Shown: piece by piece, positions 39,301 to 63,300 of the stretch | Layout: every line of letters starts with the position of its first letter | Position numbering within the stretch: the first letter of the stretch is position 1 | Assembly (NCBI GenBank): GCA_021735655.1 | Contig: JAIPGM010000001.1 | Coordinates: forward strand, 32,001-96,000 | DNA: 64,000 bases | Origin: Candidatus Omnitrophota bacterium | GTDB lineage: Bacteria > Omnitrophota > Gorgyraeia > Duberdicusellales > 4484-171 | Direction: 5' to 3' | Position numbers and translations under genes: made by a program | The notes under the pieces: model-generated | Database searches by the model: none | What the model saw: only the letters and a program-made list of their open reading frames with translations | Told to the model about the DNA's origin: nothing

Positions 39301-42300
39301 CTAGTGATATGGGCATGAAGCCTAGCCGTGTTTTAGCAGTTGAAGCTGGAGTTGATCAAGAGCCGTCAGATAGCCAGACTAATGATAGCCCGTTTGTTCC
39401 TTCTAATCGCATACCTATGATACCGGGCTCTTCTTCACCAGTTGGCTTACCTAATCCTGTTCAGACTCCGCTTGGCCCAAAAGGACTTTCGCCTTTATCT
39501 ATTATTAGAAGGACATCAACTTTTATTACAAATTTAAGGGGTTATCTGGGTTTATCACCGGCTATAGCTGCTGAAGTAGGCGCTGTGCCGAGTGACAGTA
39601 GAAGACAAATAGATGCTTTAACAGCTAAGATTGACGATGAGAGTGATATAAGCTTTGGAAGATCAGCGAATTCGCCCGGCAAGACGGTGGTCCATGCCGT
39701 AATTGCCTTTGTACGGCGATGGATCAATTTTACAGAGGGCAAAATAGCAGTTGGATTTACAAATTTTGGTCATAAATTTGACCAATTTGAAAAAAGAATC
39801 AGCTCTTTATTAGGAAAAATAGGCAGAAATGCCACTTCTGAAAGCGAAAGAGGTGTATCTGGAAGCGCTAGGAGTGTATCTAGAAACGGAAGCCAGGCCG
39901 GAGTAGCTTTAGACAACGGAAAGGATTTAGAAGTCAAAGCTAACCCTGAAGATGGCCGCAGACCGTTAAGAAGAGCTGAGAGTAAGCTTATAGCAGGAGT
40001 AGATAGCATACCTAATAGTAGGGATGCTGAAGAAACTCAAGCTGAAGAGATTGGCTTGGGTGGTAATGGCAGTGGTTCACAAAATGGTGGTCAAGGAACT
40101 TTAGGCGGTTCGTCTATAGAGATCGAACTACCTGTAATTTTAGATTTACGACGTCTTCATGAATCCTTCAGACCAGTAGTAGTTGGCCATAATGCCTCAA
40201 AGGCTCAGGCTCCGCCTGCAAATTCAAGAAAACAAGCAAGTTTAATTTTCTATACCCACCCAATAACTGTACTTGCTTTAGGTTTTATCTTTTTAGGCTT
40301 AAAAATTCCTCAACTTTTACCAATATCCATATTAATAGCTTTAGGTTTATTAGCAATATTGCCGCTTTCTCGGATTCTACCAAACGTGGCCGGTGGGTCC
40401 TTGAGAGCGGCTTTTGATTTAAATCAATGGACCCATCCTACTGTCGAAGTTGCCTCTCCATCAACCTTCCTGGCAAGTGGGTCCCGTAATAATAGTTCCA
40501 GTAGCTCAATCCACACCGATAAGGTTGCCTCTCCAACTTCTAAATTGGTTGTTGGGCTTTCTGGAACTAGTCTTAATAGAGGGGTAAGTAGTAATAGTAG
40601 CAGTAAAACAGAACAAGGGGGTGCAAGATGGTCAGTAACATCAGATCGCTCAGGTTTCAACACTTGGTTGTGGCAACCGATGGAACGATTTTTGCATCAG
40701 CTAGAGACAGCTTTGACCGCATTGAGAACTACATCGTCAGCCGTTTTGGAGATGTTAAGCGCCAGGTTAACACGCGTTTTGAACCGGTTAGATCGGATGA
40801 GGCAGGATGGATTAAGAACCTTATCGGAGTTCCTCAGACGATTCCGATCTATCGGGCAAAGAACATTAGCGTTAGCTAGCGCTGAGAGAGGGTCCGTGGC
40901 AGGACAATTTTCTAAGGGGGTCCGTGGTAGACCACTCGATAATGGCCGAGCTAAAAGATTAGCATCTCGAGCTTTGTCAATAATTACTGCTTTAGCTGTT
41001 TTAGGTTCAGCTAATGTTGTTCAGGCAGCTGAAGCAGGTCAGGCAAGTGATAGCGAAGTAAATGTGGGGTTAGTTTTAGCAGTTGTTTTTGCGGTAGCAG
41101 CAGTTTTAGCAGGAATCAGTTTTAGAATTTATGCCGGACAGAGGATCAAAGATATTGAATCTAAAACTGGAATCCAAGATAGCGCAAGAATTACTAGAAT
41201 CAGAGCAATAATTGAAGAGTTAAAACAAGAAGCTCTCAGGTTAGCTCAAGTCGCTCGAGAAAATGCGATGATAAAGGTTCTAATAGCACCTCAGGGTGAC
41301 CCATATAGAAGACTTAGTGCTTCTGAAATAGAAAAATTAAGAGCTAACCAGAAACCAGATGTAGAGTTGAGATTGTGGGATGTAACTGTGAGCGGAACCG
41401 GAACCGTAAGAATAATTTATGGTTTTAGCGAGGATAGAGTTGATTTCATAGTCATTGCTACCGATGGCGTTGTTCGAAGACAAAGTTTACCACGCGATTA
41501 TGTAGTTGATTCTATTGTAAGCGATAATGTAATTGTCGATTTATATCGTGGGAACCTCAATACTCAGCGAATCATAGAACATAGCATATATCAACGCTTA
41601 ACATCAATTATTGGTAGCTACAACGCAGAATTAGAAGCTGCCCTTGAAGAGGCTGAAGCTAATTCAAAGCAAGCTAAAGAACTATTAGACAGTAACCAAA
41701 GACTATCAGCTCGTGCCATTCGTGCTAGAGCTCGTCAAGCTGCTAGCTTAGCCGGAGCAGCCATTGATAATGCTACAACCTTAATTGAAATCGCCATCTC
41801 ATTGAATGTAGCTAGATTAAGAGCTCGAGCTAAAGTCTTAGAGAGAGAAGCTCAGGCTACTTTAAGACAAGCTGAAAATAAAATACAGAGACCACTTGAT
41901 AATGGTCGAGTGAAAAATGAACCATTAATAGGTTTTAGTCCTAATGGTTTTCATGAAAGTAAACTATTTACAATAATAACGCTAGGTTTGCTTTTATTAG
42001 CCGTAGCAGCAACAGTGACCTATCCGATTTACGCGTTAATGTATTTATCAATACCGCTCGGTGGAACTATCATTCTTTATGCATTGCTCGCTTCTGCGGC
42101 AGTTTTCTTTTCTATTAATTTTATTAACCTTCTTAATAGGATTGAATATTATCTTTTAATCAGTCGAGCACCACAAGCTGAACAAAGTCTAATTAAGGCA
42201 AGGAACTATGTAGAATTTCAGGATGCAGTCTATGCAATAGCTAGAGAGGCTGGAATTAGCATTCCTCATATAGATAGTATAGGCCAAGCTGAGGTTATTA

Positions 42301-45300
42301 TTGATAAAGTTACTGCGTCGCTTGAAGCTAGGGATTTAGATAAAGAAAGAGTTCAGGGAATAAGAACAGCTTTAGAGATGTTATTTTTAGGCGATGGTTT
42401 TGCTTTCGATCTTTTCGCTGCAGCCGTCTATATGATATCTTATCGAGACGAAAATAGTAGGTATCCAGCTTGGGTAAGCGGGTATCAAGAGAATGTTGGA
42501 AGAGTATACTATTCCAATCATCGTAAAACTCGTTCTCATTTGGGAAGTTTCTATCCTTGGTTGAGCATTCTACCTCATGAAGCCATGCATGCATTTTTAG
42601 CTAGAGCTAATTTAATTGATGGCGGAGCGATCGGTGAGGAGATCGCTACCAAAGCTGCTCGTATGAGCGAAAACGTAATAATTAGAGAGGTAGTTTCACC
42701 GTCAACCGCTTGGGAATCTTACCTGAGAAATCATTGGGGAGAAGTTCAAGATGGCTATTCTCATGATGGACAAGAGGTAGAGGTATTAAATATCAGTTCA
42801 ATGGCCCTACGAGGAATTGCTTTAATTCGTTTTATTAGAAATTTACTTAGCTTGAGGCTATTTCAATTGAGAGAGCTAGCATCTTTAGCAAGAGTTATAT
42901 TATTAGGTACACCGAATACAACTCTTGGTTTAGCATTTGCGCTTGATAATGGAAAGAAACCTACTCGAGTATGGAAAAGAATGCCTAGTTTGCAGACGGT
43001 TTATGAAACAAGAGGCAACAGAATTGACCGTTTTTTCCGAGCCATAATGTTAGCTGAGACTTTTGAACAAGAGGAAAAGGCTGTTAGACTAGCTAAGAAA
43101 ACCCTTAACTCAGATGATTATCTCAAATTAATGAAAAGAATTATGGCTTCAGTTGAGGTTGTCGCTGATGATGATCAGACTGATAGTAGAGCAACTCCGC
43201 TCGACAATGGCCGTTCAAGAAGGGTAATACCTAGAACCTTATCAGTAATTGTTACCTTAGTTGTTTTAGGTTCAACTAAAACAGCCTTTGCTTCAGGAGC
43301 AGTCGCTGCCGGCTCAGCAACAGTGCCTTTTTGGGGTGTAGTTGCTATGATTGTTATGGGGCTAGCTTTTGCATATATGTTTGGTTTTGTAGTTTATAGT
43401 ATGATTCGTAGTGCCAATATTGGCGGCCGAGATGAAATTAATGAGTTAAGGGATCGGGTTAGAGAGTTAGGTGGAAGCAAAGCTTTAAGAGAAGCCGGAA
43501 CCCCTGAAGAACTTATTGGAAATCTAAACAGTAAAGGCCAGGTTAGTGAAAACGAAATAGAAGGAGAGCTTGATGTAGTAGAAGCTCAAATTAGGAACAT
43601 TGAAGAAAGTAATAGTTCAAGTTGGTCCCAAGATCAGTTAGTTAGCTTAGAGGGCTATAGAGATGAATTAAGAAGAGAACTACTTGAAGCACAAGAACGA
43701 TTAAGAGTTTTAGAAGAAGAAATTGCTGGAGATATTCGTGCTTTTGAAAGAGCTCATGAATTAAATGTACCTTATGCAGCAGATGGTGATTTAGAAGAAG
43801 CTCCTCAGCCAAAAACTGTAGTTGGTAGAACACTCAGATTAGCTGGTCAAATTGCTAAGGTAGCCGTGGTAGCTACATTTGGCATAATGGTTATTGCATC
43901 TCCGGCTACCAGTTTTGCAGGATCTACCTTTGGTCAGTCGGCAGATGGTTTGGCTATGGACCATAATTCAGATATGGATGATCAGGATATAGACATGGAT
44001 CATTCAATGGGAGCTGTTTTACCGAACACAGAAACATTAACAACTGATGAAGTAGTTTTTGATCCTTCTTCAGTTATTGATTCTTTGTCAGATCAAGCTG
44101 GGGTTGATATAGCCGACACAGCACATTTTAATAGAGAGCTTAGTGGAGCTAAAGATAAGGTTGTTGTGTTAGATTTTTGGGCTACTTGGTGTGGACCTTG
44201 TAGAGACGTGGCTCCACTTTTAGAAGAAATTGCTGAGTCTGATGATAATATTAGGTTATTGAAAATTGACATTGATGACAACCCTGAAATTTTTAATAAA
44301 TTTAAGGTAGTGGATAAGGTAACTGGCAAAGAATTAGTTCCTCAGATACACGTTTTGGTCCATAATCCTAAAAATGGAAATTGGGAACGAAGAGAAGCTT
44401 TGGTAGGTAAAAAGAGTAAAAATCAGATAGAGGCTAGCCTCAGGCCATACTTAGCTGGTTTGGCTAAAGCTGAAACAGAAAGCGATAAGCCGGCCAAGGA
44501 AGCTTCTGAGGGCGAAGCAAGTAGTGGTCATTTTTCAGTTCCTTCAGGGGAAGCGGATTCTAAAGATTTGGCCGAAAGAAGGATTGATGAGATAGAGAAA
44601 AAACTTGTAGCTGAAAAAGAATTAACTGAAAAGAAAAATAAGGCTGATCAAGCTTTTAGCAGCGGTGATTACAGAGAGGCTGCTGAGCTTTATGAGGAAG
44701 TTTTAAATTCGGATTTAGCTAAGGGAGCTTTAGAAGCAATCGCAAAAACAAAGTTGGCTGTTGCTAAGCAGAAAATTGAAGTAGGCGATTCCGATCAGAA
44801 TATTAAAACCACTGCTGTTGGAGATGATAAGGTAGCTCCTGAAAATGAGAGCTTACAGCAAGTTATAGACCAAGGTTTAAAACAAACATCCTCAGCGACT
44901 ATTAACGAAGCGTTAGTTAAGTTAAGAACATATAAGATTGAAGAAGGTAGCTTGTCTGATGAATCTTATAGAGCACTTAAGGCTGAACAAGAAAAAGCTA
45001 TAAGTTTGTTAGTTCAGAGAGTAAAAGCTGTTACTTTTGCTGAGCTCAAAATGCAAAGAGCAATTGAAGCTTCAAATTACAATAAAGCCATGAATGAAAT
45101 CGGTAATGTTTATGTAGAAACATCTACTGATGGTTTAACTAGAGCAATTACCGATGCTATTAATATTCAAGCTCAACACTTAGAGAGTGTATTGACGGCT
45201 ATCCACGTTGCAGACAGGACAGACAAGATTGATTTTGCCTTGAAAGTACTTAAAGAAAGTAAAGGTAAGAATTTACTCCCAGAGGAATTAGAAACAAAAC

Positions 45301-48300
45301 TTCAACAAAAAGTAGATAGAGCTATTGGCGAGCTCACAGCAAGAAAAGCCACAGTTGGTCAAGAGACTGATTCAATAAGAGCGCCACCAACTGATAAACC
45401 AGCTACTGAAGAAGCAGAAGCGTCCACAGATTATTCAAAGGTCGGTATTGAGCAATTGACAGAATTGGTAGATGCTAAGATTAAATCTCAACTTTCTCCG
45501 GAAGAGAAAAAAGTTTATGAGGCAAACAAAAACAAGTTAGATTATTTAAAGAAAAATCATCCGGATCTTTTTAAGAAACTTGTTGTTATTGCCGAAGACG
45601 ATATAAAGGCTTGGTTCGAAGCTAACCAAAAACCAATTGTTCAAGCTCAACAAACAGAAATACATAGAGCCGAAAATGTTCTTAAGCAATTCTTAACAAG
45701 ATTTGGCATAGAGTTTAATCAGCCGCGCTATGTAATGGTTTCGGAAAAATTACTTGATGGTCGCTTGGGCGCAGTTTATATTTTATCTCCGGATACAGTT
45801 ATTCTATCTGATAAATTTGAAGTTAAGCAGAAGGTTAGACCGCAAGGAAGGTCTCAGGGACGAAGCCTAGTCGCCCTTGAACCAGCTGGTTCAAATATCG
45901 AAGCTGCTAATCCTAATGAAAATTCTTTAGCTATCGTAGTTATTCATGAGAATCTTCATTTAGTTAAAAATTCTGGTTTAGGCAGCGATCAGATTAACGA
46001 AGGATTTATCCAACATACAACTGATATATTAGCAAAGCAAAATAATTTTAAAGTATCTCACGATCTATATGAACCGCAAAAGGCAGTTATTTATGCCTTA
46101 GAGGCAGAAATAAGTAAAGTTGCCGGAGTAAGCTTAGCTCAAGCTTACGATATGGTAGCCAAAGGATACTTATTAGGAGATACCAGTTTTATTTCAGCAA
46201 ATATTGGAGAAGGCTCCTGGGAAGAAATTGTTAGTATTTCTAATGAATATAGAGATAAAATGGCTTTTGATAATAATCCGTTGCTTTGGGATAAATATGT
46301 ACCTAGAGTAGCTAAAAAATTAGGGGTTAATGACGAAAGCTTAAAAGATCAGCCTAGAGGTTTGAGAGAGAGAGCTAAGCAGTCAGTGGTTGAGTTAGCC
46401 GTTGTTGTTGGAAAAGTTCAAGAGTCTGACAGCGTAGAGCCCGAAGTATCAGACCAAGAGTTACCTAAAGAAGAGGTCAAGAAGGCTGATGGTGATCAAT
46501 CTGTAGATGCTCAGGTTTATTCTTCAGCTCGAGGATTGAATTTAAAGGATAAACAAGAGGGCGAGCAGTTGCAGCAAGCATTCGCAAAAGCAGTTGTTGG
46601 CAATAATGTACCTGAAGAAGCGTTTGTTGTTACTGGCGATACAGATAAGAATTTTTCTGTTAAAGGCAAATTAAGTAATGAAGATGTTGTTAGTTATAGC
46701 ACTAAGAAGATATCTGAGCGCCAAGAGCAGGGATCTCTTACTGCTGGCAGTTTAATAAAGGTAAGAGAGGTTGGTGGAGATAAGAGTTTTCTCTGGCAGA
46801 CACATTTGGGTGATGTTTATGAATTTAAGGCTGACGGGACAGTAAGTAAACTTATTGATGCACGTGATCAAACGGCCTCTAAAATTAAGGTAAATCCAGC
46901 TGAAGAAGGATTGCTCGATACAATAGGCAGGCATGCTTATGAACAGATGCAGAGAGGAATTACGAAGGGATCTATTTTTAACTCTCAAGAGGAACAAATA
47001 GGTTTTTGGCAGAGAAAGGATAATAAAACTATAGCGGTTATTTATGCAGCTGCTGGCGAAAGAAAAGGTTTCGATGTAAGTTTTACTGAAGAAGTTCGTT
47101 CGGTTGAAGAGCAAAAAGCCAAGAAACTTGCTGATGACCAAGCTGCTGAAAAAGCTGCTGAAGTTAAGAAAGCCGCTGACGCTGAAAAACTTGCTGCTGA
47201 AAAAGCTGCTGAAGCCAAGAAAGTAGCTGATGCTGAAAAACTTGCTGCTGAAAAAGCTGCTGAAGCCAAGAAAGTAGCTGATGCTGAAAAAGCTGCTGAA
47301 GCCAAGAAAGTAGCTGATGCTGAAAAAGCTGCTGAAGCCAAGAAAGTAGCTGATGCTGAAAAACTTGCTGCTGAAAAAGCTGCTGAAGCCAAGAAAGTAG
47401 CTGATGCTGAAAAAGCTGCTGAAGCCAAGAAAGTCGCTGATGCTGAAAAAGCTGCCGAAGCCAAGAAAGTAGCTGATGCTGAAAAACTTGCTGCTGAAAA
47501 AGCTGCTGAAGCCAAGAAAGTAGCTGATGCTGAGAAAGCTGCTGAAGCTAAGAAAGTAGCTGATGCTGAAAAACTTGCTGCTGAAAAAGCTGCTGAAGCC
47601 AAGAAAGTAGCTGATGCTGAAAAAGCTGCTGCTGACAAAAAGATTGCTGATGAAGCTGCTGCTAAGAAATTAGCTGATGAGGCTGCCGCTAAACCAAAAA
47701 CCCAAAATGATGGAGCTAGGGGTATTCGCGCTCCGCCAGCTGCGGAACCAAAGGTTGAAGATCAGCCACTAGCTAAAGCAGAAGAAGCAGTTAGCCAAGC
47801 AATGGAGAAATTGGTTGATGCTGCTAATGCTTCAAATGATGCTGCTAATGCTTATTCCGAAGCTACCAGCAAAGAAGCTGAAGATAAACTTAATAAACTA
47901 GCTGGAGAGTTTGCTCAGTTAGTTTTAGCTAGGGATAATCAAGATGATCAGGTTGTTGACAACGATGGTCAGGTAAAGGCTAAGGAAGCCGAAGTAAGCC
48001 AGAAACAGAAATCAATAGCCGAGCAAGAGGAAAGATTAGAAAAAGCTCTTACTCCTCCAGAAATAAGTGAAGATTGGGAACAGGCTGCCAAGGAGAGGTT
48101 TGGTAAATATAGCCATAATTCTAGGGGTAAATATAATAAAAATAGATTTCATAGCCAGACTCGCACAGTTCCATCAGTAGCTTATGATCAACCAGAAGAA
48201 GATTTTCGTAAAGGAATTCATGAGGTTGTCGGTGAAGGCAAAGAAGCCGCTGCTTATGTTGATACTTCAGTAGTTCATCGTGGTAGTGAAGCGCGTGGTG

Positions 48301-51300
48301 CTGGTACAGTAGTTTTGATCTTTGCTGTAGATAAAAATGATTTTAATAAAAGAGTTTTAATATATGTTGATGCCAGCCGTAGACGCGGTATCGATTATAA
48401 TGATCAATATTTTGACTTAGAGGGTAATCAAGTTGAGCCTTTTGGAACAAGTGATAGCTTAATCATTAGGGTTGGCCAAGTTAGTTCCGACAAAGATGGA
48501 GAAATAAGCTTAGATTGGGGTGAACCTTACACTAGTTCTCGTGGCGAAATTAATGATATTTTTGGAAAATATAAACCTGAAGGTGAATTCGTGGCTGGAT
48601 CAGAAGCTCAAGCTAGCGAGCGATCAGCCAAAGATTTACAGGAAGAGTTAGAAAAAGCCGAAGGCGAATTAGAAGCCCTCAAGAAAGCTAAGGAGGAGTT
48701 AACTGGAAAGACAGCTGAAACTGATGAAGAATTAAAAACTAAACAAGCTGAGATTGAAAGATTAAAAGAAAACTTAAAACAAAGACAAGCCAAAGCTGCT
48801 GAACTAAAAAGCGAAACCGCTAAAGCAGTAGATTTGTCTATAGAGGCGCAAGATATAGTTAAAAAAGTTATAGAGGCCAAAGATGCTCCGTTAGAGGATA
48901 GGATTAAAGATCTTGATCAAGCTATTGACTTGGTTGATCAGGTAGCTGAAGTTGCTAGAAGTCTTTCAACCGAAGCGGATAATGAAGTAAAAATAGCCGA
49001 AGGCTTGGTTGATTCAGCTAAGAAAATTGAAGCCTATGCTATTAGTTTAAGAGAAGATGCTGAGAGGAAACTGGCTGAGGTAAAAGCCGCTGAAGAGGAA
49101 GCCCAAAGACAAGCCGAAGAAGCTAAAAAGGCTCAAGAAAAAGCTGAAGCAGAATTAAAGGTCAAAGAAGCTAAAGCCAAACAAGCTTTAGCTGAAGAAG
49201 ATAAGGCTAAGGAAGAATTAACCGAAGCTCAAGGTAAAACTGAGAAAGTTACCACTACCCAGACCGTAAGGGTAAATATTAATAAGCCGCGTTGTTGTTT
49301 AGTAAGATTTTTTATTGATCGTCCAAGATTTGTTCGTGGTTGGGTGCAAGATGGACATTCACGTCGTTGCGGCAGACAAACTTACCGTCAAGGTTTCTAC
49401 CCTGCAGAAATTTACGTAGAAACACTAGTAGCCGTAGATACAACTGATTTAGAGAAAGCCGCAGCTGATAAAGCTGAAGCAAGAAAGACAAGTGATGTGG
49501 AAGTTGAGACTGCTAAAGGAGAGGTTGAAGTTGCTTCAACGGCTACCCAAGAAGCTGAAGCTAATTATAATCAAGCAAAAGCGCAAAGGGAACAAGCTGA
49601 AAAATATTTAGAAAGAGCTAAAGAACTTGAACAGGCAGCTACCCAATGGCGCAAACAAGTAGAAAAAATAGCTCAAAGAGCTCAAGAGTTAGTTGACCGG
49701 GCTCAAGAATTGGAACAAAGAGCAAAAGAAGCAAAAGAGGCCATTGAGGCGTACAAAAAGGCTCTTTCTGAAGAAGAAGGGAGCGGTCAGCCTAAAGGGC
49801 CTGAAGTAGGATCCTTTTATGAGAATCATCCATTTTGGTTTTTCTTCTTACTTTTAACCCCCGGATATCTTTTCGGAATATGGGCTGCTATACGTCGTCG
49901 AAAGGGACTTTCAATCATTCCTGGACGAGGAAAAAAAGTTGTTATAGCTCTTATTGCTGTTGGATTAAGCTTAGCTTTGGCTGATAAGGCTTCTGCTGCA
50001 GACGTCAGCTTAGCAACTATGGCTGTAGAGAGCTACATGACTTTACAGAATACTACTGGTGGAGTTACTGGTTTTGGAACTGGTTATGCATTAGGAGAAG
50101 CTACAGTAGCTTTATTCTATTGGTTGTTTGGTAATAAAGATAAGACTGAACAATCCCAACCAATCCAACCTCAAGCAGATCAAGCCCCTTCTAGTCGCAA
50201 GAAAGGAAAGAAAAAAGTTGGGCCAGAAGTAACTGAAGAGTCTGATTCTGTTGTACATGAAGATGGTGATAGTGAGGACGGTGAAATGGGTTCTGGAATT
50301 GCCACTTCAAAAGGCCGGAAAGATAGTTCGCAGTCAGCACTTTCAGATATAAAAGTAAAAGCTGAATTAAGTCCTTTAGGCAGACAGGTACGTATTATTA
50401 TTGCTAGTAAGCAGGGTACCAAGAAAGCTCTATTGGATGAGATTTTTGATTTAGCAAATCTTCCGATATTTATTGCTACTGAGGAAGGAAGTTTCTATAT
50501 TTACTATAACCCACGAACCAATCAGTTGATTATTACCGCTGAACGAAGCATTAGTAATAATCCGGCTAGTGTCGGTATGGTACCGGTGAGTTCATACGGC
50601 CAAGCAGCGGAATTAGAGACTCTTTGGGAAAGTGAAGATGGGACTGAAATGGCAGCCCTTGAGGGCGAAGTTGATGACTTCGATGATGTTACTATAAACA
50701 ATATTCGTGGCATAAACAGTTATCTTACTCATCGTAACAGTATTGTTATTATTACCAGTGCTTCTGATCCAGAAGCTTACGTGCAGGATGGCGAGGATAC
50801 AGTCAATGCTGTTATAATCCAGTCAAGTAGGCGAATTGTTCATAACTCAGTTTCCTTGATGAATGCTCTTGGTCAGATAGAAGAGGTTAATGCGTTCTTA
50901 ATTTTAGGGACATCTTCTGATTGGATTACTACAGATGAAGATGGTAGAACTTTTATCCATCGCGCAGTGAAGTTAGTAGGTCGCGATGGTAATCGTATTC
51001 GTATGGTCGTTTTGGATTTTGATCAACCACTTGAAGTTCATTATGGAGTAATTCGTTTGGGACGACCGACTAACACTAAAAATATTCAGCATACCATAAT
51101 ACCTTTATCGCGTAAGCTTGGTTATGAATGGATTGCAAAACATAAAATTGCCGCCAATTTAGTTTTAGTTGATGCACACGTCGCTGTTCCGGATAGCTTT
51201 TCGTTTGTCCAAGATGGTCATGAAGATACGCCATGGATTAAGAGCGCACGTAAGCCTTGGACTATTCGAGGTCCACCCGGTTCGGGTATCCAATGGTATG

Positions 51301-54300
51301 AAGTAGCTCCGGGGACCTATGTTATGTTTGTTCAGGGCGCAGGTCGACAAGCCCGTATCAGAGCTGCGGTTGAGAATTTCGTTGCTACTCATCGGGCCGA
51401 AGACGGAACAGCTAAACCAGTTGTTGTCAAAATCGCCGATGGCTCACAGGGTGTAGGTATAGCAATGTTCGGTGTCGAAGAATACGATAACGAGTTAGAT
51501 TTTATCGATGATGCCGTTCAAACTATCCAGGGTTTTCTTAGTGAAGGTCACAGTGTTATGCTTCAAGAACGTGAAATACCGGTTAATGTTGCGGTTAGTG
51601 GCCAGGATTCAAATTATCGTGTCTTTATATCTCGCAAAAACGGAAAGCCAGTTGTAACCAAAATTGTGGTCCGTACTGGTCCTTTTTCGAATGATCCAGT
51701 TAACATTAGTCAGGGTGCCGAAACTATAAGTTTTGAAACAGAAAGCTACGCGATGCTTGGTTTGACTAGCGATGAGCATGCTCGTAAGCGTGAAGCTATT
51801 GAGTCAGCAGCTTTAGCAATGTTTAAGGCTTTAGATGCACAGGCTGATAATGATGCTCTTTATGAAGAAACAGAACGTAGCCAACAAGATTTTGCAAGTG
51901 CCGATATAATTGTTGTTGAAATTGAAGATGCTAACGGCGTTAAGCAGTTCCATCCTAAGATTATTGAAGGCAATGGTACCAATTCAGGTGGTTTTTGGCA
52001 TCTTGATGAATACTATAACAGTAGTTATAGCAGTAAGGGTCGTCAAACAACCGAAAGGGGTTTAGCTATCAAAGAATATGCTGAAACCATAGCCGCTCGT
52101 GCCCGCGCCTATCGTCAACGCCTTGAAGGGAAAGAAGGGGCAGCATACCTTGAACATCTTATGACTACCGCTGTGCAAGATGGCAATGGTTTGGCTGTTT
52201 CTGAAGATATTGCAGTTGATGAAGCCGAATATGATGCAGCGGTTGTTCTTATCGGAGGCTATGTTGATTCTCAGGCCTTGGCTATTTTACAAGCAGCGAC
52301 TGAGAGTGATCCTGCAGTTGCTTTTGTTTGGGTTCGTTGGTCTGGTGAGCTTCGTCGTCGGAAAGGTGTATTATATGTTCAGGATGGCGTTCGCTATCGC
52401 GAGGGCAAATTAGAAGCAGTACACTATGCAGCACCTATTGCTGTAGGTATGGTGCATGCTGCTGGCACTGTCAGCAATAAACAATTACGTAGATTAGGCA
52501 TAACACCACGTACTTGGAATACACGTGTTGAATTTTATATGCATCATAAGGCAGCTACTGCTTATATTTTACGTCAAGCTGGCGTATCAATGCCGAAAAC
52601 ACTTGCTTTCTTGCCGGGTAGTAACAGAGGGCCAGCTCTATTACGCGACGACCCCGATACAGTTATTGTATCTAAGAATGATTTACGTAGAAGAAAAGCT
52701 GCTGTTCGAGTAAGGATACGTCAACGCGTAAGTGAACTTTCAGAATTCACCACTGGCGCTATTGTTAAGCCGGCTAACCGTTCACGTAGTGAAGGCGTTG
52801 AAGCAATCCCTTATACTGGAACCGAAGCAACCATCGATGCTATTACTGATATGATTATGGCTCGTTTGCTTAAAGGCGAAAGTCTTATTCTCCAGGAAAC
52901 ACAATTAGCAAGATCAATCGATGGTTTATATGGTATCGGAAAAACTAGACACTTGGTACGAGCCTTCGGTATGATTGATCCGGTAACTGGGAAACCAGTT
53001 GTTTTTGCCATCAGATTTGATCCAGGACATATGCCGATCGGCGGAGCCGATAGTATTGTAGTTAACGCTACCCGTCATACCTTGACTGCTGATAAGTACC
53101 ACGGTTATACACTTGAAGAAGTTGCTGCTATGTGGGGTATGGATCCGGAAAGCTTACGCAGCAGCATTGAGCAGTTATTCATTGATGCAGTTACTGCAGT
53201 TGCCTCAACGGTTAATCCACGTGGTGTCAGTCAGGCTTGGATTACGACCGATATGATTATCGATGAAACAACCGGAAAGCCGGTTCTCGTCGAGATGAAT
53301 GGTCGTCGTTCAGCTCAAATCTTTGGTACTGAGAAGCACAGATCAGAACTTGCTCGTTCAGGAAAGGCTCCGGCACGTAGTTATACTGCTACTTTTACTG
53401 ATGCTTTAGCTGCGAAGGCCAAGAAACACCTTAAGGTAAGTATAGAAGAGACTTCGACAGCAGCAGTTCCTTTAGACAACGGAAGTAGTCATAGAGGATT
53501 GTCTATACCGGTATTTTTAGCTGGAATTTTAACTTTGGGTTTAACAAATATTGCTTCGGCTGCCGAAAAAGGGCAAGCAACTAATTCAGATAATCCGCTA
53601 TTTGCTTTATTTTTAATAGTTGCTATACCTTTAGCTGTAGCAGCTGTTGTATTCTTATTTGCTATAGATTGGGATTATTATTTTGGTAAATTAACCAGGC
53701 AATCGCCTCCCAGCGAGAGTGAAACCTCCCCGATAGGGGATGATAGATTAGAAGTTGATGGGGCTAGTTCATCCGTGGCTGCTAGCCCTACTTCTTCTAG
53801 CCATAGGGATGAGCCTCATCGACCTCTTGACAACAACTCTGGAGAAAAACGAAGCAGATTTTCTTTAAGATCTCTTTTCGGTGGAACAGCAGATAGCTCT
53901 TCAGCTTCTAGCTCTGCTAGTAGAACATCTCGAGAAACTCGTGCACCACCAGTTTTAAGAATTGTAATAGCTTGGGCTAGCGCAGGTAACATAGCCGCAT
54001 TAAAGGCTTTAGTCGAGCGTATTAGGCAGGATTTAATTGATGGATTACCTTTTGATGTTGTAATTGAAGAAACAGTAGTCTTAACTAAATTAGATAAATA
54101 TAACCAAAGTCATTTAGGCGCAACCAGAGATTCTAGCGTTGGTCAGTATATCCTTCCTTGGCCAAATTTAAAAACTAAAGCTAACGTACCTACCTTAGTT
54201 ATTACTGATGCTGATTTGGGCGGAACATCTGAAGATGATTCTGGAAAACGATCAACAAATAATAGCCTTATGGGCAGGACCTATGCTTGGCAGAATATAG

Positions 54301-57300
54301 CACTGGCCACTACTTGGAAATTCCGCAGTTCAAACCAAGGTCTATCAGATAGAAATAATCGCAATAACATATTACATGAACTCGGCCATCTTTTTGGAAT
54401 AAATCATGAGTGTGGCTGTAAAACCTGTATTATGCATCAAGCTGACTCAACCGAAGAAGTGGCCCGGACGAAACAATTTTGTAAGTCTTGTAATAACGAA
54501 TTAACTAAAATAAATGGTGTTAAATCTAAAAAAACACCACTTGATAACGGTAAACAAACTAGACAATCGTCTCCCAGCGATAGATTAGAAGTTGATGGGG
54601 CTAGCTCATCCGTGGCTGCTAGCCCTACTTCTTCTAAACCTTTGGATAATGGAATATTCGGAGTAATGTTTAGACAAAGAGCCACAAGGATTGATGCTGA
54701 TGGCCATGGTAATTGTTCTGCTGTGACTATTTGGGCTAAGAGAGTTGAGGCTTGGGATGGTTATTTTTCAGAGGGAGAGTCTTTTTATATAGCAGGTATT
54801 GAAGATAGTAGCGATTCATTAGGAGAAAGTACAGATCCTAGGTATGTACGAACTGTAGAAAGATCGGAATCTTCAGATAGGTCTCAAAGAATAGTTAAAG
54901 TAGAAGTCGCTGAGGGTGAATTCACGATTATTGAATTAGAAGACGGATCGGTTATTGCTCATGCCCATATATTTCCAAGACAGGGAACGGCCGATACTGC
55001 TTATTGGCAGCTTATTAGAGTGTTGGATTATTTTACCGACTCCAGAAATGGTTTTGATCAAGATAGCTTAAGAATTGCTTTTGGTTGGGAAGAACGTTTA
55101 GATGGATTTGGTTACGATGCAATTACTTTTAATAGAAGGTTGTTTAGAACTTCGGATTATATGGGGGATGGTCGAGGGCCAGTTTATAGTTCAGCTATGA
55201 CTTGGGATCAACAAGTCGCCGCAGCTGGTCTAGTCGGAGTATTACCTAGTGGTACCGAGCGCATTAATGAGTTAGAGCAGTTGGCCAGAGACAAAGGCTT
55301 TGAAGTTATTTCTTCAAATACCCGTCAATATACGCCAGATCCGGCAGGTTCCGGACAGGGGATGACCGCAACAGATATTAGCGTAACATCTAGTGATTAT
55401 TGGTTGTCGCATAGGCAGGCAGAATTTAGATTTCATTTACGCTTATCAGAAGATAAAAGACCGTTAGATAATGGTAAAGAGAGTGATTTACAGATTCCTC
55501 TTGATAATGGCCCAAAAGGACAGTCTGAATTAGCGGCTAATACCTTAGGCTCTCTAATTGCCGGATTAGTCGCTGCACTTCCAGTTGTTGGGTTGGTGGC
55601 GGGCGCCTTAGCTTTAGTAGTTGTACTTCCGCCGGCAATAACAACAACGACCGCAGTAGTAGTAATCGCAGTAATTGCGGCAGCAGGAATCCTATCGCTT
55701 CCTTTTGCCTATATCTCAGTAATGTTTTTGTCACAAGGCTTAAGAATTGCCATAGCTAATGTTGTTCATGGCGGCATAAGAGGCCCTACTGCTTTAACTG
55801 AACCTATTGCTACTCCGGGCAGTAATGTTTCAAGAAAAATTCCTGAATCAATTATGCCTTTAGCTCTAAGACATTCCATTAACCAGGTTCATGAACAAGC
55901 CCATCGTGATGGAAAAGATGAGCTTGGTGCTTATTCTGCTCAAGCAAAAGATTTCTTGGCTAAAGGAATAAAAGTTTTAATTCATCTTGGATTACTAATC
56001 GGTGCTACTAAATTAGTTTGGATAACTGGTTTCGGTAGTTTATTTAATGTATTTGTTCCAGCTCTCGTGGTCTTGGTTGCTGTTTTTTACCTATGGAAAG
56101 ATTTAAATTCCTTAAGGGATAGTCAGCCAATTAAACTTTTCTATGAATCTCGGGTTTTACTGACTCAAGCTGAAAGTTTAGCCATTGGCACATTTGTTTC
56201 AGCCCGTGGTGTTCAAAGCCAAAGGGTTGGGTTTGCCGATAGAAGCTTAATTGATTCAGTCTCTCGAGTAGTTACTAATCCAGTTTTAGTAGTAGCTTTT
56301 GTTTTATTAGGAATTTCGGTACCGTTAACTGGCGGAGCAAGTTTCTTCAGTCTAGCTGTATTGCAAGGTGCTCTTTTTGGAGTCTTTGCTCCTTATTTGT
56401 TTAATGTGTTATGGAATTTTTTCTGGGATCATGCTCAGAAGGATGATTACCTGCAAAAAATAGCCGAAGGTTATAAAGCTAGAACACTTTCAACTAATAA
56501 TTTGAACGAACTAGATAGGTTAGTTAAGCTTTTTGAGGATGGTTTAGCTAAGGCAAATAATTTTGAAAGAGTTTGGTTTAGGCTAAAGAGCTTTTGGATA
56601 ATAGGATCAGTAAGACTTCCAGCCTTAACCGGACCAGCTAAATTTTTGATAGGTAGGTTACAGTTAGTTTTCTGGGGTTCAGTAATAGCTCTAGGAGTTC
56701 TTCCTTTTGTTGATCAATGGTTATTAAATATTTTTGGAGTTGGGGCTGAATTTTCTTTGCTCAACCTAATTGGTTATGATGGCGTTAAAGATGGCGCTGC
56801 CAGCTTGAGTCTTTCACATACAATCGGTGGCTTAATAAGAACTGGCATAATTGTAATGTTGCTTAAGATTTTTAGCCGTAGATTTTCTCAGCTTAGGAAT
56901 AATATTCAAAATAACCGACTAGCCAATGGTAAGGATATCAAATTAGGTTCTTTGAGCGCTGGGTACTTAATTAAGAATTTTGATAGAGTAGATAAAGATT
57001 CAATAAAGCTAGCGCTTGAGCGGGGTTTAATTAATCCTTCAGGAATTCCGGCAGCTAAGGCGCTATTACGCGAAATGCTTGGAACTGAAGGCATAAACGT
57101 TGTTAATCCTTCAGTTTCCGGGAAGTTATTCCATCAGTTCTTTTATTACCTTATTCCCGATGCAATAACTTTTCTAGTCGTTATTTCTTCGCCGATATCC
57201 GGTTTATTGTATTTTTTACATAGAAGAGTACTTAAGAATTTAAACAATGATTTCAGTGTAGCGCATCCTTATTATTCTTTATGGCTTATGCAGGGCCGCG

Positions 57301-60300
57301 AGTATTGGGTAAGTTTTGGGCATATGTGGATAATATCAGCTGAGATTGAAGCAGTTGTCGATAGCGGCGATTATCTTGCCGGACATCAAGTTTTAAAGCA
57401 TGTTGGTGGTCAAGAAATAGGTCAGATTGCTCATCTCTTAGAAGGTAAAAATGGAGCAATTTCTTGGGGTGGCCATATTTTAGGATTAGTAGAATCTTCT
57501 TTAGGCATAAGCTTGGCTCAGGTTGCCCATAATGCTTTAGGTGGTGAAACTGATGTTGTAGCTTGGCAACAAAGCAACCAACTCAAGATTCAAATTGACA
57601 CAATAGAGTCGTCTAAAGATTTTAAAAGAATACATTCTAGAGCGAATGCAGAAGTTTTGAAGAATGCTGATGCCCTAGAGCAAATGTTTTCCTTTGAGGC
57701 AGAACGGAATGAATTAGAAGAATCGGTAAGAGTCCATGCTCGCAGTCTCCTTTATCAAGCTGCTGCTAGTAAAGAAGCGCACGATAATGTGTATGATCAA
57801 GATGGAAAGCTAAAACTTGATTTAGCAGTAGAGATTGTTGCAGCTAGGGTCACCGGTAGTATTTTAGGTAGAGTATTTTCAATGGGTCAATTTGGTGGCA
57901 GCAGTTCCTTGGGTAGCGAAATAGAAGTTGTGGTTGATGGGGACGCTGATGTGGTTGGATCAGAACCAAAAGTAGTAGCTGCTCCGTTAGACAATGGAAA
58001 GCCAAGCGAAAGACCGGTTGTTGATTCAGAAAAGGTAGATTCGGTTTCACCAAACCAGGCAGAGGGTTCTACGGTTGAAGATAGTTCAGAGGCTAAGGCT
58101 TCAGATACAAGAGAGGTCAAACAGTCCAGAGCGCCACCTGAGGAATCAAAGGAAGGTCTATTAACTCGTTTAAATAGAGGAATTTTCCGCAAAGTAGCTC
58201 CGGTCTTATTAAGTTTGCATATTGCTTTTTCACCGATAACTGAGTACTCTTTAGCTAGCTATTTAGAAAATCAAAATCAAGCAGTTGCAGTTCAAGTCCA
58301 GGAAGTTGACTCATTAGGGACGGTAGTTGATTATAGCCGTAGTCGAGACGGAAGCGCACTGAATGAAGCAAGGATTAAAGCTGAAGTTGAATCAACTCCG
58401 AGTGAAGCAGTTGATTTTGAACGGATTAACCGCGGCGGTGAACTGGATAAAGCTCGAGGATTTTACCAGACCCAAGGTCTAAAGGCTGCTTCGGATAGTT
58501 TTGCCGAGTATTTCAGACAACCTGGTAAGATTAGAGTAGGTGATTATGATCGATTTACCGGATCAGTCTATAATGGCAAATTATATCTATCTGAAGATAC
58601 CTTAGATGATTCTTCAGAGTTAACTCTTACCCTAGTCCATGAAATTGGAGCTTTCGCTAAAAGAACTCATGCTCAAAATAAAGCTATGGAGTATAAGTTC
58701 TTGGTAGCTGAAGGAAAAGTTCCTGAAATTGCTTTAGAGATGGATCCGGTATCTCGAGAAGTTGTTAAACTTAAACCAGGAAATACCATAGCGATTATCG
58801 AAAAGCCTAATGGCGATTGGGTTGCTGTAGGTAAAGATGGAAAAGAAACTGTTATATTTGGAGCATCTATCCAGGTCGCCGAAGGGGCTAACCCACCTTC
58901 AGCCTATGGTGAAAATAAGCCAGAGTTACCTTATCGTAACTTACACGATACTGACAGAGTAAAAACTGAAGATGGGAAAAATCTGACTAGTGTTTTAGAT
59001 CAAATCGGATTAAACTTTCAGCACTTCTACCTGATGACTAACCCTACTGCTGAGCAGTTAAAGATACTAGAAGGGATAGTAACAAAGGCAAGAGCAAGGG
59101 GTGTTGAAACTATGGTTACCTATTGGGCTGGTCAGCATACTAAGAACATTTCTTTAGAAGCTGAAATTAAGCAGGCTTTAAATATTCCGGCCGAGAGAGA
59201 TTTGACTGAGTTTAACTTAAGGCCGGTTGAGGATTGGAATAAGCTTACTCAAGTTAAGCAAAATCAATTAAAGGCCCAATTGGGTATCGCTGCTACTGAA
59301 ACTGTAAATGAAATACAGATTCAAAATCTTTTAATGCTTGAAAGCTGGAGTCAAATACCAGCGGCTCGGCAAAAAGAGCTTAGAGCCCAGATTGGTATCA
59401 GCGAAGCGGCCAAGTTAAGTATAGACCAGATAGATACGCTTTTATTTATCAATCTTTGGCAAAGTTTGCCGGTAGCTAAGCAAGCAGAGTTTAGAGGACG
59501 CTTAGGCTTTGAGGCTACCGAGAAACTCACCGATATCATGCAGATTGAATCAGGTCTATTTACTCTTTATAATCCTACCGCTGAAAATAAAAAGTATATT
59601 GTCGATCAGGCAAAGATGGTTGCCGAATGGGCCAATCAAGTTGGCGTTTTTGTAAAGATTGCTAATGAAATTAACTACTATGATAAGAATGGTCCGGTTC
59701 TTGATCTTGCAAAGATAAATCCAAACCAAATGGTCAATTTGTTTCCTCATCAGTTATATAAATTTTTAAACGAGGAAATAGCAGTATTGTTTAATAAGGA
59801 TAAAGTTTTCTTAAGCTTAGGAAGGTTAGATGTTCCTGGTTTTGAAGATGAGCCATTCTTAAAAGATAATCTTTCAAATTTCAAAGGGTTGGCCTTAAAC
59901 CTTTATCCTAACTGGGATCCTCAATTTGGCGGCTCACGTGAAACCGATCAATTATTTAGTTCGATAAACTATAGCCGTGGAATCATTGGTAGCATGCAAG
60001 CAGCAGCAAGTTTAAGAGTTCCAGTAATAATTTCAGAGTGGGGCGAGTCTTCATATTTAGCCGGCATTGCTAAAGCTATAGGAATTGGTGAAGTTGGTCA
60101 GGCTCTTTTTGCCCGAACTTTTTATCAGGGAATTCTACCATTTGTTGCCGGAAATAGTGATCCTAAATATGCTGATCGAACTCAATTTCCGAAAGTTATA
60201 GTTGGTGCGATCGTCTATAGTGGTGCTTACGAACAAGGTTGGCAGGCCACCTTAGATCCAGCTGAGCCAGGGTTGTCATTTACCGAAGTTGTTGACGCTT

Positions 60301-63300
60301 CAGATCCTTTAACTGTAAGAGTAAAACCGTTTGCTTTTGAACTTGCAAAGATAAATGATCTTTTGCAACGCATGGTCCAAGGGTTGGCAGTTGAGCAGGT
60401 AGTGGTTCCTGAATTTACCGCTAAGCCAAAGGCTAAGGTTGACCGAAGCCACGAAATACCGGAAGCCGAAATAACCAGGCCACTTGATGCTGCGGCTGTC
60501 GTTGAAATTTCTCGTGAGTCTCAAGCAATCCAATATTCTAAAGACAATCCTAAAGAGCCAACAGTTGTTTTATTGACTAAAGGGGTTGCTCGTCTTGATC
60601 CAAAGGTCATAGCAAGTAGTCTTTCTGGCATTGGAAGAGTATTCTTTGGGGATGATCCGCAACTTATTAGAGATTTCGGTGCTGATAATCTTAAAGAAGG
60701 TTTGTTTGAGGCGAGAGTATTACTTGACGGAAAAGTTATTGCAAGGCTTATTACTGAATCGGGTTGGAAAATTAGCGATCAGAGCAGAGTAGTTAAAAAT
60801 GGCAAGCTAGTAAATGAAAAGACTGAAAGAGATGGAAGCTTTGTAATGCTTGAACAGGTTAAAACAGCTGAAGGTTTTGTAACTAATGGGTACTATATTT
60901 TTGATGCTGACAAATCTGAATATCTGCATTTAGAGAATTTAAATATACGTAATATTGATGAATGGCTAGCCATAAGAGGAAATTTCCCTCAGTATAACTT
61001 AGCTAGATCCGTTGGGGGAACTACTGATGTAGAGTTTGTTCGTGTTGAGATTGATTCTGCCAATAAAAATATAATTATTGATTACACGAGAATTAATAGC
61101 GGTAAACAGGTTCCTCTAACTTGGTCAACGGTAATTAGTCGTTTAACTGCCACTGCAGAAAGCACTGAAGCCGTCACCGCTACAGATATGAAACCGGCTG
61201 AGGATATGCTGGATAAGTTGTTACAATTAATACATGATGGCAAGTTTCATCGAATATCAAAACAACGGGGTAGTCGCGCAGCCCATAATCGTGAGTTACG
61301 AGCCAATTGGCTTGATTGGGATTTAAGAAGACATACTGGCATGAATTACTGGGAAGTTGGCTTACCTAATCCAATCCAGGGTTTTGCAATTATTACTAGA
61401 GCCGGATCACGCGGACAAGTAATATTCCTTTCCGATACTGCGACTGACGCTAATCTTCAAGCAAAAATACTTGGTAATTATGATTTAAGATTTACCCCTA
61501 GCGGAAGAGTTCAATTTAACTTGGAAGGTAAGTTAGTTGAGTTGCCTTCAGTATCGGATTTGAGATGGGCCTTACGGAATATTAATTTTTCAGGAGCAAG
61601 AATAGTTGGTGAAAGCCCTGAAAAAGGAATGGATATTTTAAGTGCCGAGATTCCTTGGTACGGTGATAATTTAACATTTTTGGGCGAGAAGTTAGTTTCT
61701 AAGGGTGAGGCAGTAACTATGGTAATGCTTCACGATCGTGATCGTGGTGAAGTATCGATTAAGATTTTAGTTGGCGTTACTCCGCCGGAAGGTGGCGAGG
61801 CCAAGCTCGACTGGAAAGAGAAATTCAATAATTTAGTTAAGCGTGACGGCGCAAGTTCGAAATATCTTTTTGGTGAGGTGCCTTTAGTTGAAATTAATTT
61901 TGAGCGAGTTGGGCCTAATACTTATCGGGTGATGGCTGAGGTTGATCCGGTATATCCCGGTTTAAGAAAAATAAAAGACGTTAAGGTTGAGACTGCTGAA
62001 GATATGGCCAAATTAGTTGAAGCTACTTTAACTAAGAAGGCTATAGAGGGAGTTGACACTGGCTTACGTATCGTTACCAAGGGTAAGTATTCTTTACTTA
62101 TTCGTCTTGATAAGAATACCGGAGACCCGATTGAGGGAGCAATTGAGAAATCAGCAAAAGGCTTAAAAGCAGCCTCGCGACTTTTCGGTAAAACTGAATC
62201 ACACAAGACCTTTACCTTTGAGGAAAAACTTGACCCGCGAACTGGTCGAAGCAGCGATGTGGCAAGACTAATAACTGATAAGACTGACGCAAACTGGTTT
62301 GGGCTTTATATCGTTGAAGATGTAACTCTTAGGCAAATTATTGCTGCTTTTACTGAAAATGGCACACTTTCCGGAATAAACGGCGTTGATAGTGGGTTAA
62401 GAGCCTTACAAAAAGAAGTAAATGTGATTGTAGTTGACGCTCAAGGGCGTCGCACAACCCAAGAAGTTACTCGTAGCTTATTCTTACGCTTTGATTTAGA
62501 AACTAAAAAGTTAATTGAAGGAATTGTTCAAACTGAGGATCCTAATACTGATAGATTGCGTCCGGATAGCCTTGAAAAACGTCAAAAGGGCCAGAGAATT
62601 ACTGATGATGATTATTACTGGTTTGTCCGCGATGTCAGAGAGCCAAAACCGTTTGATTTTGAAGGTGCTATACCGTTAGATTCTGGACGCATCATAATTG
62701 TTAATCGCGAGGATCCTAATGTTCCTGGGCTTTGGTATGTGGTTGATGCTGAGGCTGGCGATATAGTCTCAGCTTTCCGTCAGAATGGATCATTAAGAAA
62801 TATTAGAGGCCGGGAAACTGGTTTCCGAGCTTATCAGACTGAAGTTACCTTACGAGATGGTGATGGAAAAGCTATTTTAGATGACCAGGGCCAGGAAGTT
62901 AAAGTAACTCATACTTTACTTTTCAGGTTTGAGTTAGATGATCAAGGAAGAATTATGAAAGATTCTTTGGCTGAAGGTGTACTCCAGGCTGAGACTACTG
63001 AAGCTAAATTGCGTCAAGGGAAAGATGGCAAAGATGAAACTAATGATTATTACTGGTTTATTAATATGTCTAAAAGCCTTATATCGTTTAAGGTTACCAG
63101 CTATGATCAAGGTAAGTCAGTATTAATGATTTCTCTGCCGGAAACAGAAGCTGACAAAGATGGTTGGCGTCCAGTTAGAAGGTTAGAGGTTGATAATGCC
63201 AATCAGATTAAAGATTTAGCTGAAGCCTTAAAGAGAGCAGTTACTAATAATGATTATAGCGAGCTGGGTGAGAAAACTGACACACGGATTAAGATCGTTG

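Follow-up and report, generated by a model that had tools for sequence, protein, structure and literature searches.

YheC and YheD are spore-coat-associated proteins of Bacillus for which, to our knowledge, no reaction has been established. Their Pfam family, ATPgrasp_YheCD (PF14398), is the best sequence-family match for two modules of a giant protein that were found in the current study in DNA of a Candidatus Omnitrophota bacterium (64,000 nucleotides (nt) of contig JAIPGM010000001.1, the whole of which is called the window). The family of these modules lies between the YheC/D-like ATP-grasp proteins of Pfam and the structural group formed by RimK, LysX, GshB and DcsG. Members of that group are free-standing homo-oligomers, whereas the window encodes a tandem fusion of two diverged copies with a membrane tether. 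The setting also recalls the giant proteins described from Omnitrophota, which exceed 10,000 amino acids (aa), contain numerous transmembrane (TM) segments and have type II secretion system (T2SS)/Tad-type genes nearby (West-Roberts et al. 2023, 10.1101/2023.11.21.568195). The same preprint reported a divergent SecA DEAD helicase domain in most of them, linked them to predation, and noted that their TM predictions are unreliable.

It is likely that nt 50766-53438 of the window encode two tandem, complete modules of the ATP-grasp carboxylate-amine ligase type, set in the membrane-threaded half of a giant Omnitrophota-type protein, downstream of Tad-pilus genes. Two tandem ATP-grasp domains inside this protein had been proposed in the original prediction, which was made from the DNA letters alone, and the three peptides to which it pointed (AKPVVVKIADGSQGVGIAMF, TGAIVKPANRSRSEGVEAI and GKPVLVEMNGRRSAQIFG) were all found where it had placed them, in one frame. 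When 1.84 billion cluster representatives were searched exhaustively, 45 relatives emerged (best E 1.9e-51), from which a family profile hidden Markov model (HMM) of 421 positions was made with the window sequences left out. Against the giant protein this HMM gave exactly two matches, both near full length (about 420 positions): module 1 at 50766-52133 (aa 9802-10257; E 6e-81) and module 2 at 52221-53438 (aa 10287-10692; E 4e-34). Both lie on the forward strand, as do all features given below, and the HMM envelopes leave a linker of 29 residues between them (52134-52220). Each module has about 410-455 aa and the complete three-domain ligase layout (N-domain, central domain and C-domain, followed in module 1 by a terminal helix), including a pre-ATP-grasp N-domain ahead of the ATP-grasp core, as in RimK/LysX/GshB-type amidoligases. 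Compared directly with each other, the two halves of the region aligned colinearly (23% identity, E 0.005). On this profile evidence, membership of both modules in the family can be taken as established. The region had originally been drawn from 51150, which is about 385 nt late, so that the N-domain of about 100 residues and the first invariant lysine of module 1 (K9928, nt 51144-51146) were cut off.

In an alignment of 25 modules (A1), both window modules among them, the only invariant columns were K127, K222, R285, D380, E401 and N403 (module 1 numbering). K127 and K222 are the phosphate-binding lysines, one opening the central domain and one in the vvK(P) strand; R285 belongs to the D-x-R-v-f strand, and the last three columns are the Asp...Glu-x-Asn Mg ligands. 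The K/K/R/D/E-x-N set is intact in both window modules, the lysine pair being K9928 and K10023 in module 1 and K10396 and K10469 in module 2, and the Mg ligands D10181, E10202 and N10204 in module 1 and D10630, E10644 and N10646 in module 2. The predicted ATP/Mg-binding constellation, which counts two arginines, is conserved in both, and the downstream motif that had been read as a Mg-binding E-x-N (E10644-x-N10646) falls on invariant columns of the family.

Over the 25 modules, Pfam matches were found to ATPgrasp_YheCD (20 modules, best E 4.6e-14), ATPgrasp_ST (14) and ATP-grasp_3 (10), with minor matches to GSH-S_ATP (5), TTL (4) and RimK (2). Of the families named beforehand for such a scan, ATP-grasp_3 and RimK were each matched by part of the 25 modules; neither window module had a significant match to RimK or to GSH-S_ATP. 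The closest relative, P0001, scored 69.3 bits on ATPgrasp_YheCD in two stretches (gathering cutoff 26.8 bits) and 35.8 bits on ATPgrasp_ST with its second module, both above gathering, and several further relatives scored 27.7-37 bits on ATPgrasp_YheCD. The motifs vvKP-G-G-GV, QE, D-x-R-v-f, N-x-s-x-G and E-x-N are common to the window family and ATPgrasp_YheCD. The window family differs from YheCD in that its first lysine and its vvK strand are separated by an extra sub-domain, its C-terminal helix is conserved, and its hosts are very large membrane or secreted proteins and not small soluble ones. By its scores on ATPgrasp_YheCD, the family is best read as a sister to ATPgrasp_YheCD and not as a clear member of it.

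Several results weigh against the reading as two ligase modules. Module 1 alone scored 20.1-20.2 bits on ATPgrasp_YheCD (E 4e-4), which is below the cutoff; a query with both modules reached 28.1 bits and passed only in this combined form; and neither window module by itself reached any Pfam gathering score. With four sequences, a profile of the module 2 subclade was too thin for a significant match in the PDB; its best hit (E 0.024) was not an ATP-grasp protein, whereas the weaker hits mostly were. The neighbour-joining (NJ) tree used below carries no support values. The gene neighbourhoods of stand-alone relatives held housekeeping genes with no conserved partner and gave no clue to a substrate. 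Two further points of this kind concern the side of the membrane and are given with the topology. The C-terminal part of module 2 had only sub-threshold matches to ATPgrasp_ST and TTL, an NCBIfam scan of both modules gave no relevant match, and phmmer searches of each single module against the PDB gave nothing useful. Weak single-sequence Pfam scores might be expected where a long protein of low information content resembles short motifs by chance, but that explanation is already refuted by the two full-length matches of an HMM built without the window and by the structural model of module 1, and its probability is negligible.

Module 1 retains all family motifs, including every invariant and nearly invariant residue and the full Gly-rich loop. 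Its phosphate-binding strand and loop AKPVVVKIADGSQGVGIAMF (51411-51470, aa 10017-10036) hold the invariant K10023 (nt 51429-51431), and the loop itself, KIADGSQGVGI, fits the consensus KPxxGxxGxGV. When the family profile was compared with the PDB, this peptide was aligned to VVKPNSGGSSVGV of B. anthracis Ddl. The Mg-binding set of module 1 (51903-51974), which consists of D10181 (in ADII) and E10202-x-N10204 (in IIEGNG) on the invariant columns D380, E401 and N403, aligned to D...EVN of the same enzyme. Module 1 thus has an E-x-N strand of its own, PKIIEGNGTNSGG (nt 51954-51992), which had been absent from the original list of peptides. A single-sequence AlphaFold model of module 1 was unusable (predicted local distance difference test (pLDDT) 40), but an AlphaFold2 model from the 25-row alignment reached a pLDDT of 87.7 and a predicted template modelling score of 0.90. 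The fold comparison that had been suggested as a check found the ATP-grasp fold: the top 50 Foldseek matches of this model in the PDB were all ATP-grasp ligases, and the template modelling score on the target was 0.70 for RimK, ArgX and LysX. The model presents module 1 as a complete three-domain amidoligase-type ATP-grasp unit, whose central and C-terminal domains would clasp the ATP between them.

The A1 profile, compared with all PDB sequences, matched only ATP-grasp-fold proteins down to E 0.7, nearly all of them ligases. The matches were to Ddl (1.7e-5), GshAB (2.7e-5), DcsG (5e-5), RimK (3e-4) and CphA1 (0.0048), followed by LysX, TTLL7 and others, and the DK, VVKP and D...EVN columns of the family profile were in register with those of Ddl. 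Some ATP-grasp domains act instead as kinases of the inositol-phosphate kinase/PPIP5K type or belong to carboxylases, and the window modules might be of such a kind rather than amide-bond ligases. This is very improbable, given that the sequence-profile matches in the PDB at E <0.2 were all amino-acid or peptide ligases and that the Pfam matches (YheC/D, ATPgrasp_ST, GSH-S_ATP, TTL, RimK) include no kinase or carboxylase family.

In the proposed reaction, module 1 would be active and would clasp Mg-ATP, phosphorylating the carboxylate of its substrate to an acyl-phosphate, which would then be attacked by an amine, most likely that of an amino acid, with formation of an amide bond. By analogy with its nearest structural neighbours, which are RimK, LysX/ArgX, GshB and TTLL, the carboxylate would most likely be located on a peptide or protein, either at the C-terminus or on an acidic side chain, and the likely reaction would be the addition of an amino acid to it. 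The analogy is a distant one in sequence, as only 13-15% identity was found to the structures of RimK, LysX/ArgX, GshB and DcsG (4iwx, 5zct, 3vpb, 5k2m, 1gsa, 6jil), and no LysW-like or S6-like substrate was identified for the window modules. The matches of the window sequence to tubulin tyrosine ligase/TTLL enzymes were sub-threshold, and the TTLL-specific microtubule-binding extensions are absent. A less likely possibility is that module 1 tails or cross-links fragments of the giant protein itself, freed by the neighbouring metzincin at the repeated PLDNG linkers (both described below). The family, which turns up repeatedly in large proteins of candidate phyla, either secreted or membrane-bound, offers a defined, expressible domain of about 450 aa for biochemistry.

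Module 2 has the same three-domain layout, and the residues K10396, K10469, R10533, R10551, N10568, D10630 and E10644-x-N10646 are kept. Its phosphate-binding strand TGAIVKPANRSRSEGVEAI is located at 52752-52808 (aa 10464-10482) and its E-x-N strand GKPVLVEMNGRRSAQIFG at 53274-53327 (aa 10638-10655). The original prediction of a second strand-loop copy at about 52.76 kb holds for the strand and its lysine; the loop is degenerate, KPxxGxxGxGV having become KPANRSRSEGV with two of three glycines replaced, and this copy may not be catalytic. Other family motifs have decayed as well: DWNLRVF reads RHLVRAF, NISxGA reads NATRHT with insertions on both sides, and SGG reads SAQ. This decay is specific to the window copy, since its closest relatives (P0003, P0010 and module 2 of P0001) retain the motifs. 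From its residues, module 2 appears to be nucleotide-binding and probably non-catalytic. It has probably kept the binding of nucleotide while losing the Gly-rich lid and the substrate-side motifs, and would be either non-catalytic or an altered partner, probably forming a fused, intramolecular pseudo-dimer with module 1. Such a pseudo-dimer is consistent with ATP-grasp ligases normally acting as dimers or tetramers.

The lost Gly-rich loop, NISxGA and SGG of module 2, and the failure of either single module to reach a Pfam gathering threshold, could also be taken to mean that both modules are pseudo-enzymes, that is, ATP-grasp folds serving as structural or nucleotide-sensing scaffolds with no ligase chemistry. 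This would not account for the intact state of module 1 described above, and the invariance of K/K/R/D/ExN in 25 of 25 modules is hard to explain without catalysis; we consider this explanation distinctly unlikely.

The two window modules are only 20% identical. In the NJ tree, module 1 groups with module 1 of P0001, P0017 and P0025, and module 2 with module 2 of P0001, P0003 and P0010, while the BLAST alignment of P0001 is colinear across both window modules. Because of this low identity, the separate subtypes and the colinearity with P0001, the sequence comparisons indicate an old, heterotypic tandem, i.e. paralogues of two subtypes in an order shared with an Omnitrophota relative. A recent tandem duplication was rejected on account of the same identity and grouping. 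Separate, independent tandems were found in P0002 and P0005.

Cyanophycin synthetase has one ATP-grasp domain and one Mur-ligase-like domain, and no tandem ATP-grasp. It had been offered in the original prediction as an example of tandem ATP-grasp modules, and this analogy does not hold. The G-domain of CphA1 is an ATP-grasp domain with the weak family-profile match given above, and the Pfam scans showed no Mur-ligase match, neither in 50850-53700 nor elsewhere in the window portion of the giant protein.

The ATP-grasp pair is flanked by hydrophobic segments on both sides. Downstream, a PLDNG motif (53469-53483) is followed by the hairpin TM15/TM16 (aa 10713-10768; motif and hairpin together 53469-53666), which would anchor the pair to the membrane only about 20 residues after module 2. 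Upstream lie TM13 (aa 9492-9510) and TM14 (aa 9526-9544; together 49836-49994), which were assigned from Kyte-Doolittle hydropathy and lysine/arginine (K/R) counts. PLDNG hairpins had been claimed for both sides; the downstream one is present, but TM13/TM14 are without the motif, and going upstream the next PLDNG is met only at aa 7280, about 2,400 residues off. The claim of a cytoplasmic location, which had been based on these hairpins, is plausible, but the distribution of positive charges, judged by a simple application of the positive-inside rule, points both ways.

No stretch nearby is as basic as the loop that joins TM13 to TM14, RRRKGLSIIPGRGKK (7 K/R in 15 residues). With both helices spanning the membrane, the modules would lie outside; an inside location would require either that TM14 fails to span or that a weak segment at aa 9571-9589 (hydropathy 1.04) spans as well. 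Five relatives (P0002, P0005, P0017, P0024 and P0038) begin with a Sec-type signal and show no other strong hydrophobic segment ahead of their modules. These are the two points announced above, and they would fit a different role, in which the modules act outside the producer cytoplasm as exported or surface parts of a predation apparatus, using ATP only in, or in contact with, prey and modifying prey proteins or envelope peptides. LOG-like and adenosine-deaminase-like domains are common in nucleotide-targeting effectors, and P0024 contains both in addition to its ATP-grasp module. The signal peptide of the giant protein, the adjoining Tad-pilus genes and the published link between Omnitrophota giant proteins and predation (10.1101/2023.11.21.568195) would also suit an exported function.

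Against export stands the lack of ATP in the periplasm. The outer flanks of the PLDNG-type hairpins are K/R-rich, and multi-TM relatives (P0003, P0021 and P0033) have a K/R-rich TM flank on the side that faces the modules. Because TM15 and TM16 are both strongly hydrophobic, the modules would share a compartment with the Cys-rich M54-like metzincin, a domain type that is typical of the cytoplasm. Moreover, the hydropathy scan is crude, and TM segments may have been missed in the relatives with signal peptides. On balance, action outside the producer is judged unlikely, and a cytoplasmic location of the modules, favoured by ATP dependence, hairpin flanks, the metzincin compartment and the multi-TM relatives, is regarded as plausible. 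If export were nevertheless the case, these would be the first ATP-grasp ligases to serve as contact-dependent predation effectors, with the active/degenerate tandem of the giant protein as a form of that weapon built into the membrane. The modules offer a concrete test case for the topology of giant proteins.

The ATP-grasp family is rare and uncharacterised, and the hosts of its modules are mostly large proteins, membrane-bound or secreted, from Omnitrophota and from neighbouring lineages of metagenome-assembled genomes (MAGs). All relatives that carried an organism name were from Candidatus Omnitrophota, and one had already been auto-annotated as 'ATP-grasp domain-containing protein'. A degenerate DNA pattern for DWNLRVFV detected 25 loci in GTDB genomes, 13 of them true members, which by their record titles belong to Omnitrophota, Planctomycetales/-ia, Elusimicrobiota, Peribacteria, Melainabacteria and one gammaproteobacterial MAG. 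Other searches returned nothing: no relative was found among the best 8,000 candidates of a word-indexed protein search, either with the region or with the 25-module alignment, nor when the window sequence was used in a protein-pattern scan of GTDB genomes, and tblastn against phages gave no match. The window's own gene was not recovered by the word-indexed search because, in that collection, the gene stops before the modules; in the Logan contig SRR12088349_1123, which matches the window, it ends at 8,612 aa.

It was also observed that the large relatives P0002, P0005, P0017, P0021, P0024 and P0038 open with a signal peptide followed by FxPPxIKGLxIHPxNPLxFDFI (divergent in P0017), and that P0002, P0005, P0021, P0024 and P0038 share a conserved C-terminal motif, GFxPVIINxTPxTNxPLLLG. 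The extra domains of P0024 are LOG-like (PF03641) and adenosine-deaminase-like. These signal-peptide relatives seem to form a class of secreted multi-enzyme proteins that is as yet uncharacterised.

The host gene is a single open frame (21363..63998, phase of nt 21363) that is stop-free over at least 14,212 codons and runs past the window end. The likely start is the second in-frame ATG at 21444 (alternative ATG at 21375), from which a Sec-type signal peptide, MRKVAFLVLFCFLWQDMASA, is encoded (21444-21503, cleavage before YG). Upstream, on the same strand, are Tad/Flp-pilus-type genes, one TadE/G-like and two T2SSF (TadB/C-like), at 8822-12895; the other eight large upstream open reading frames were without a Pfam match, and an NCBIfam scan of all ten upstream genes gave none either.

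The window protein resembles the published Omnitrophota giants (10.1101/2023.11.21.568195; 10.64898/2026.06.07.730766) in its size (>14,000 aa), hydrophobic segments, signal peptide and Tad/T2SS-type neighbours. The SecA_DEAD domain reported in most of the 2023 giants was not found in the Pfam scan of the 14,212 aa within the window, beyond which the protein continues; dockerin and C39 domains were likewise not found there. ATP-grasp domains go unmentioned in the main text of both preprints and in one 2026 supplement. The modules are a new, divergent member of the well-known ATP-grasp superfamily, and what is unusual is the setting, a heterotypic tandem in a giant membrane protein. Omnitrophota giant proteins are mostly unannotated, and confidently assigned enzyme modules are rare handles on their function.

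About 98% of the 14,212 residues had no Pfam match, the other Pfam-assigned domains being a thioredoxin and an M54-like metzincin. The thioredoxin (44115-44435; Pfam Thioredoxin, E 9e-16) has a classical WCGPC, and the metzincin has the motif HELGHLFGINH (54375-54407) with CxC...C and CxxC cysteines. The presence of the ATP-grasp pair beside these two domains suggests ATP-driven peptide-bond chemistry, beyond the adhesion and glycan degradation proposed so far. The thioredoxin lies about 75 residues past a single predicted TM helix (aa 7493-7511), which suggests a membrane-anchored redox module within the giant protein.

Hydrophobic segments are numerous between aa 6294 and 11952 (about 20 or more in the Kyte-Doolittle scan). 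The approximately 6,200 residues after the signal peptide, by comparison, were without Pfam matches, and their only hydrophobic segments were two weak ones (near aa 4073-4202). Directly ahead of TM13, the sequence has a long run of charged, coiled-coil-like character that contains EKYLERAKELEQAATQWRKQVEKIAQRAQELVDRAQELEQRAKEAKEAIEAYKK (49563-49830, aa about 9400-9490).

The motif [PA]LDNG was found in 11 copies, all in the TM-rich half (about 39.9-58.0 kb, aa 6183-12209), and was absent from all 45 ATP-grasp relatives. Five copies immediately precede a TM hairpin, usually with basic residues after them (RPLDNGRAKR...), and the motif could serve as a linker or as a signal for sorting or cleavage. 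The metzincin is flanked by direct DNA repeats at 53685-53810 and 54549-54647, comprising a pair of 69 nt (91% identity) and a second, adjacent pair of 35 nt (83% identity). Both flanking repeats encode '...TRQSxPS..DRLEVDGASSSVAASPTSS' and then PLDN(N/G), so that the metzincin region looks like a domain cassette between duplicated linkers, or like a domain between repeated processing sites.

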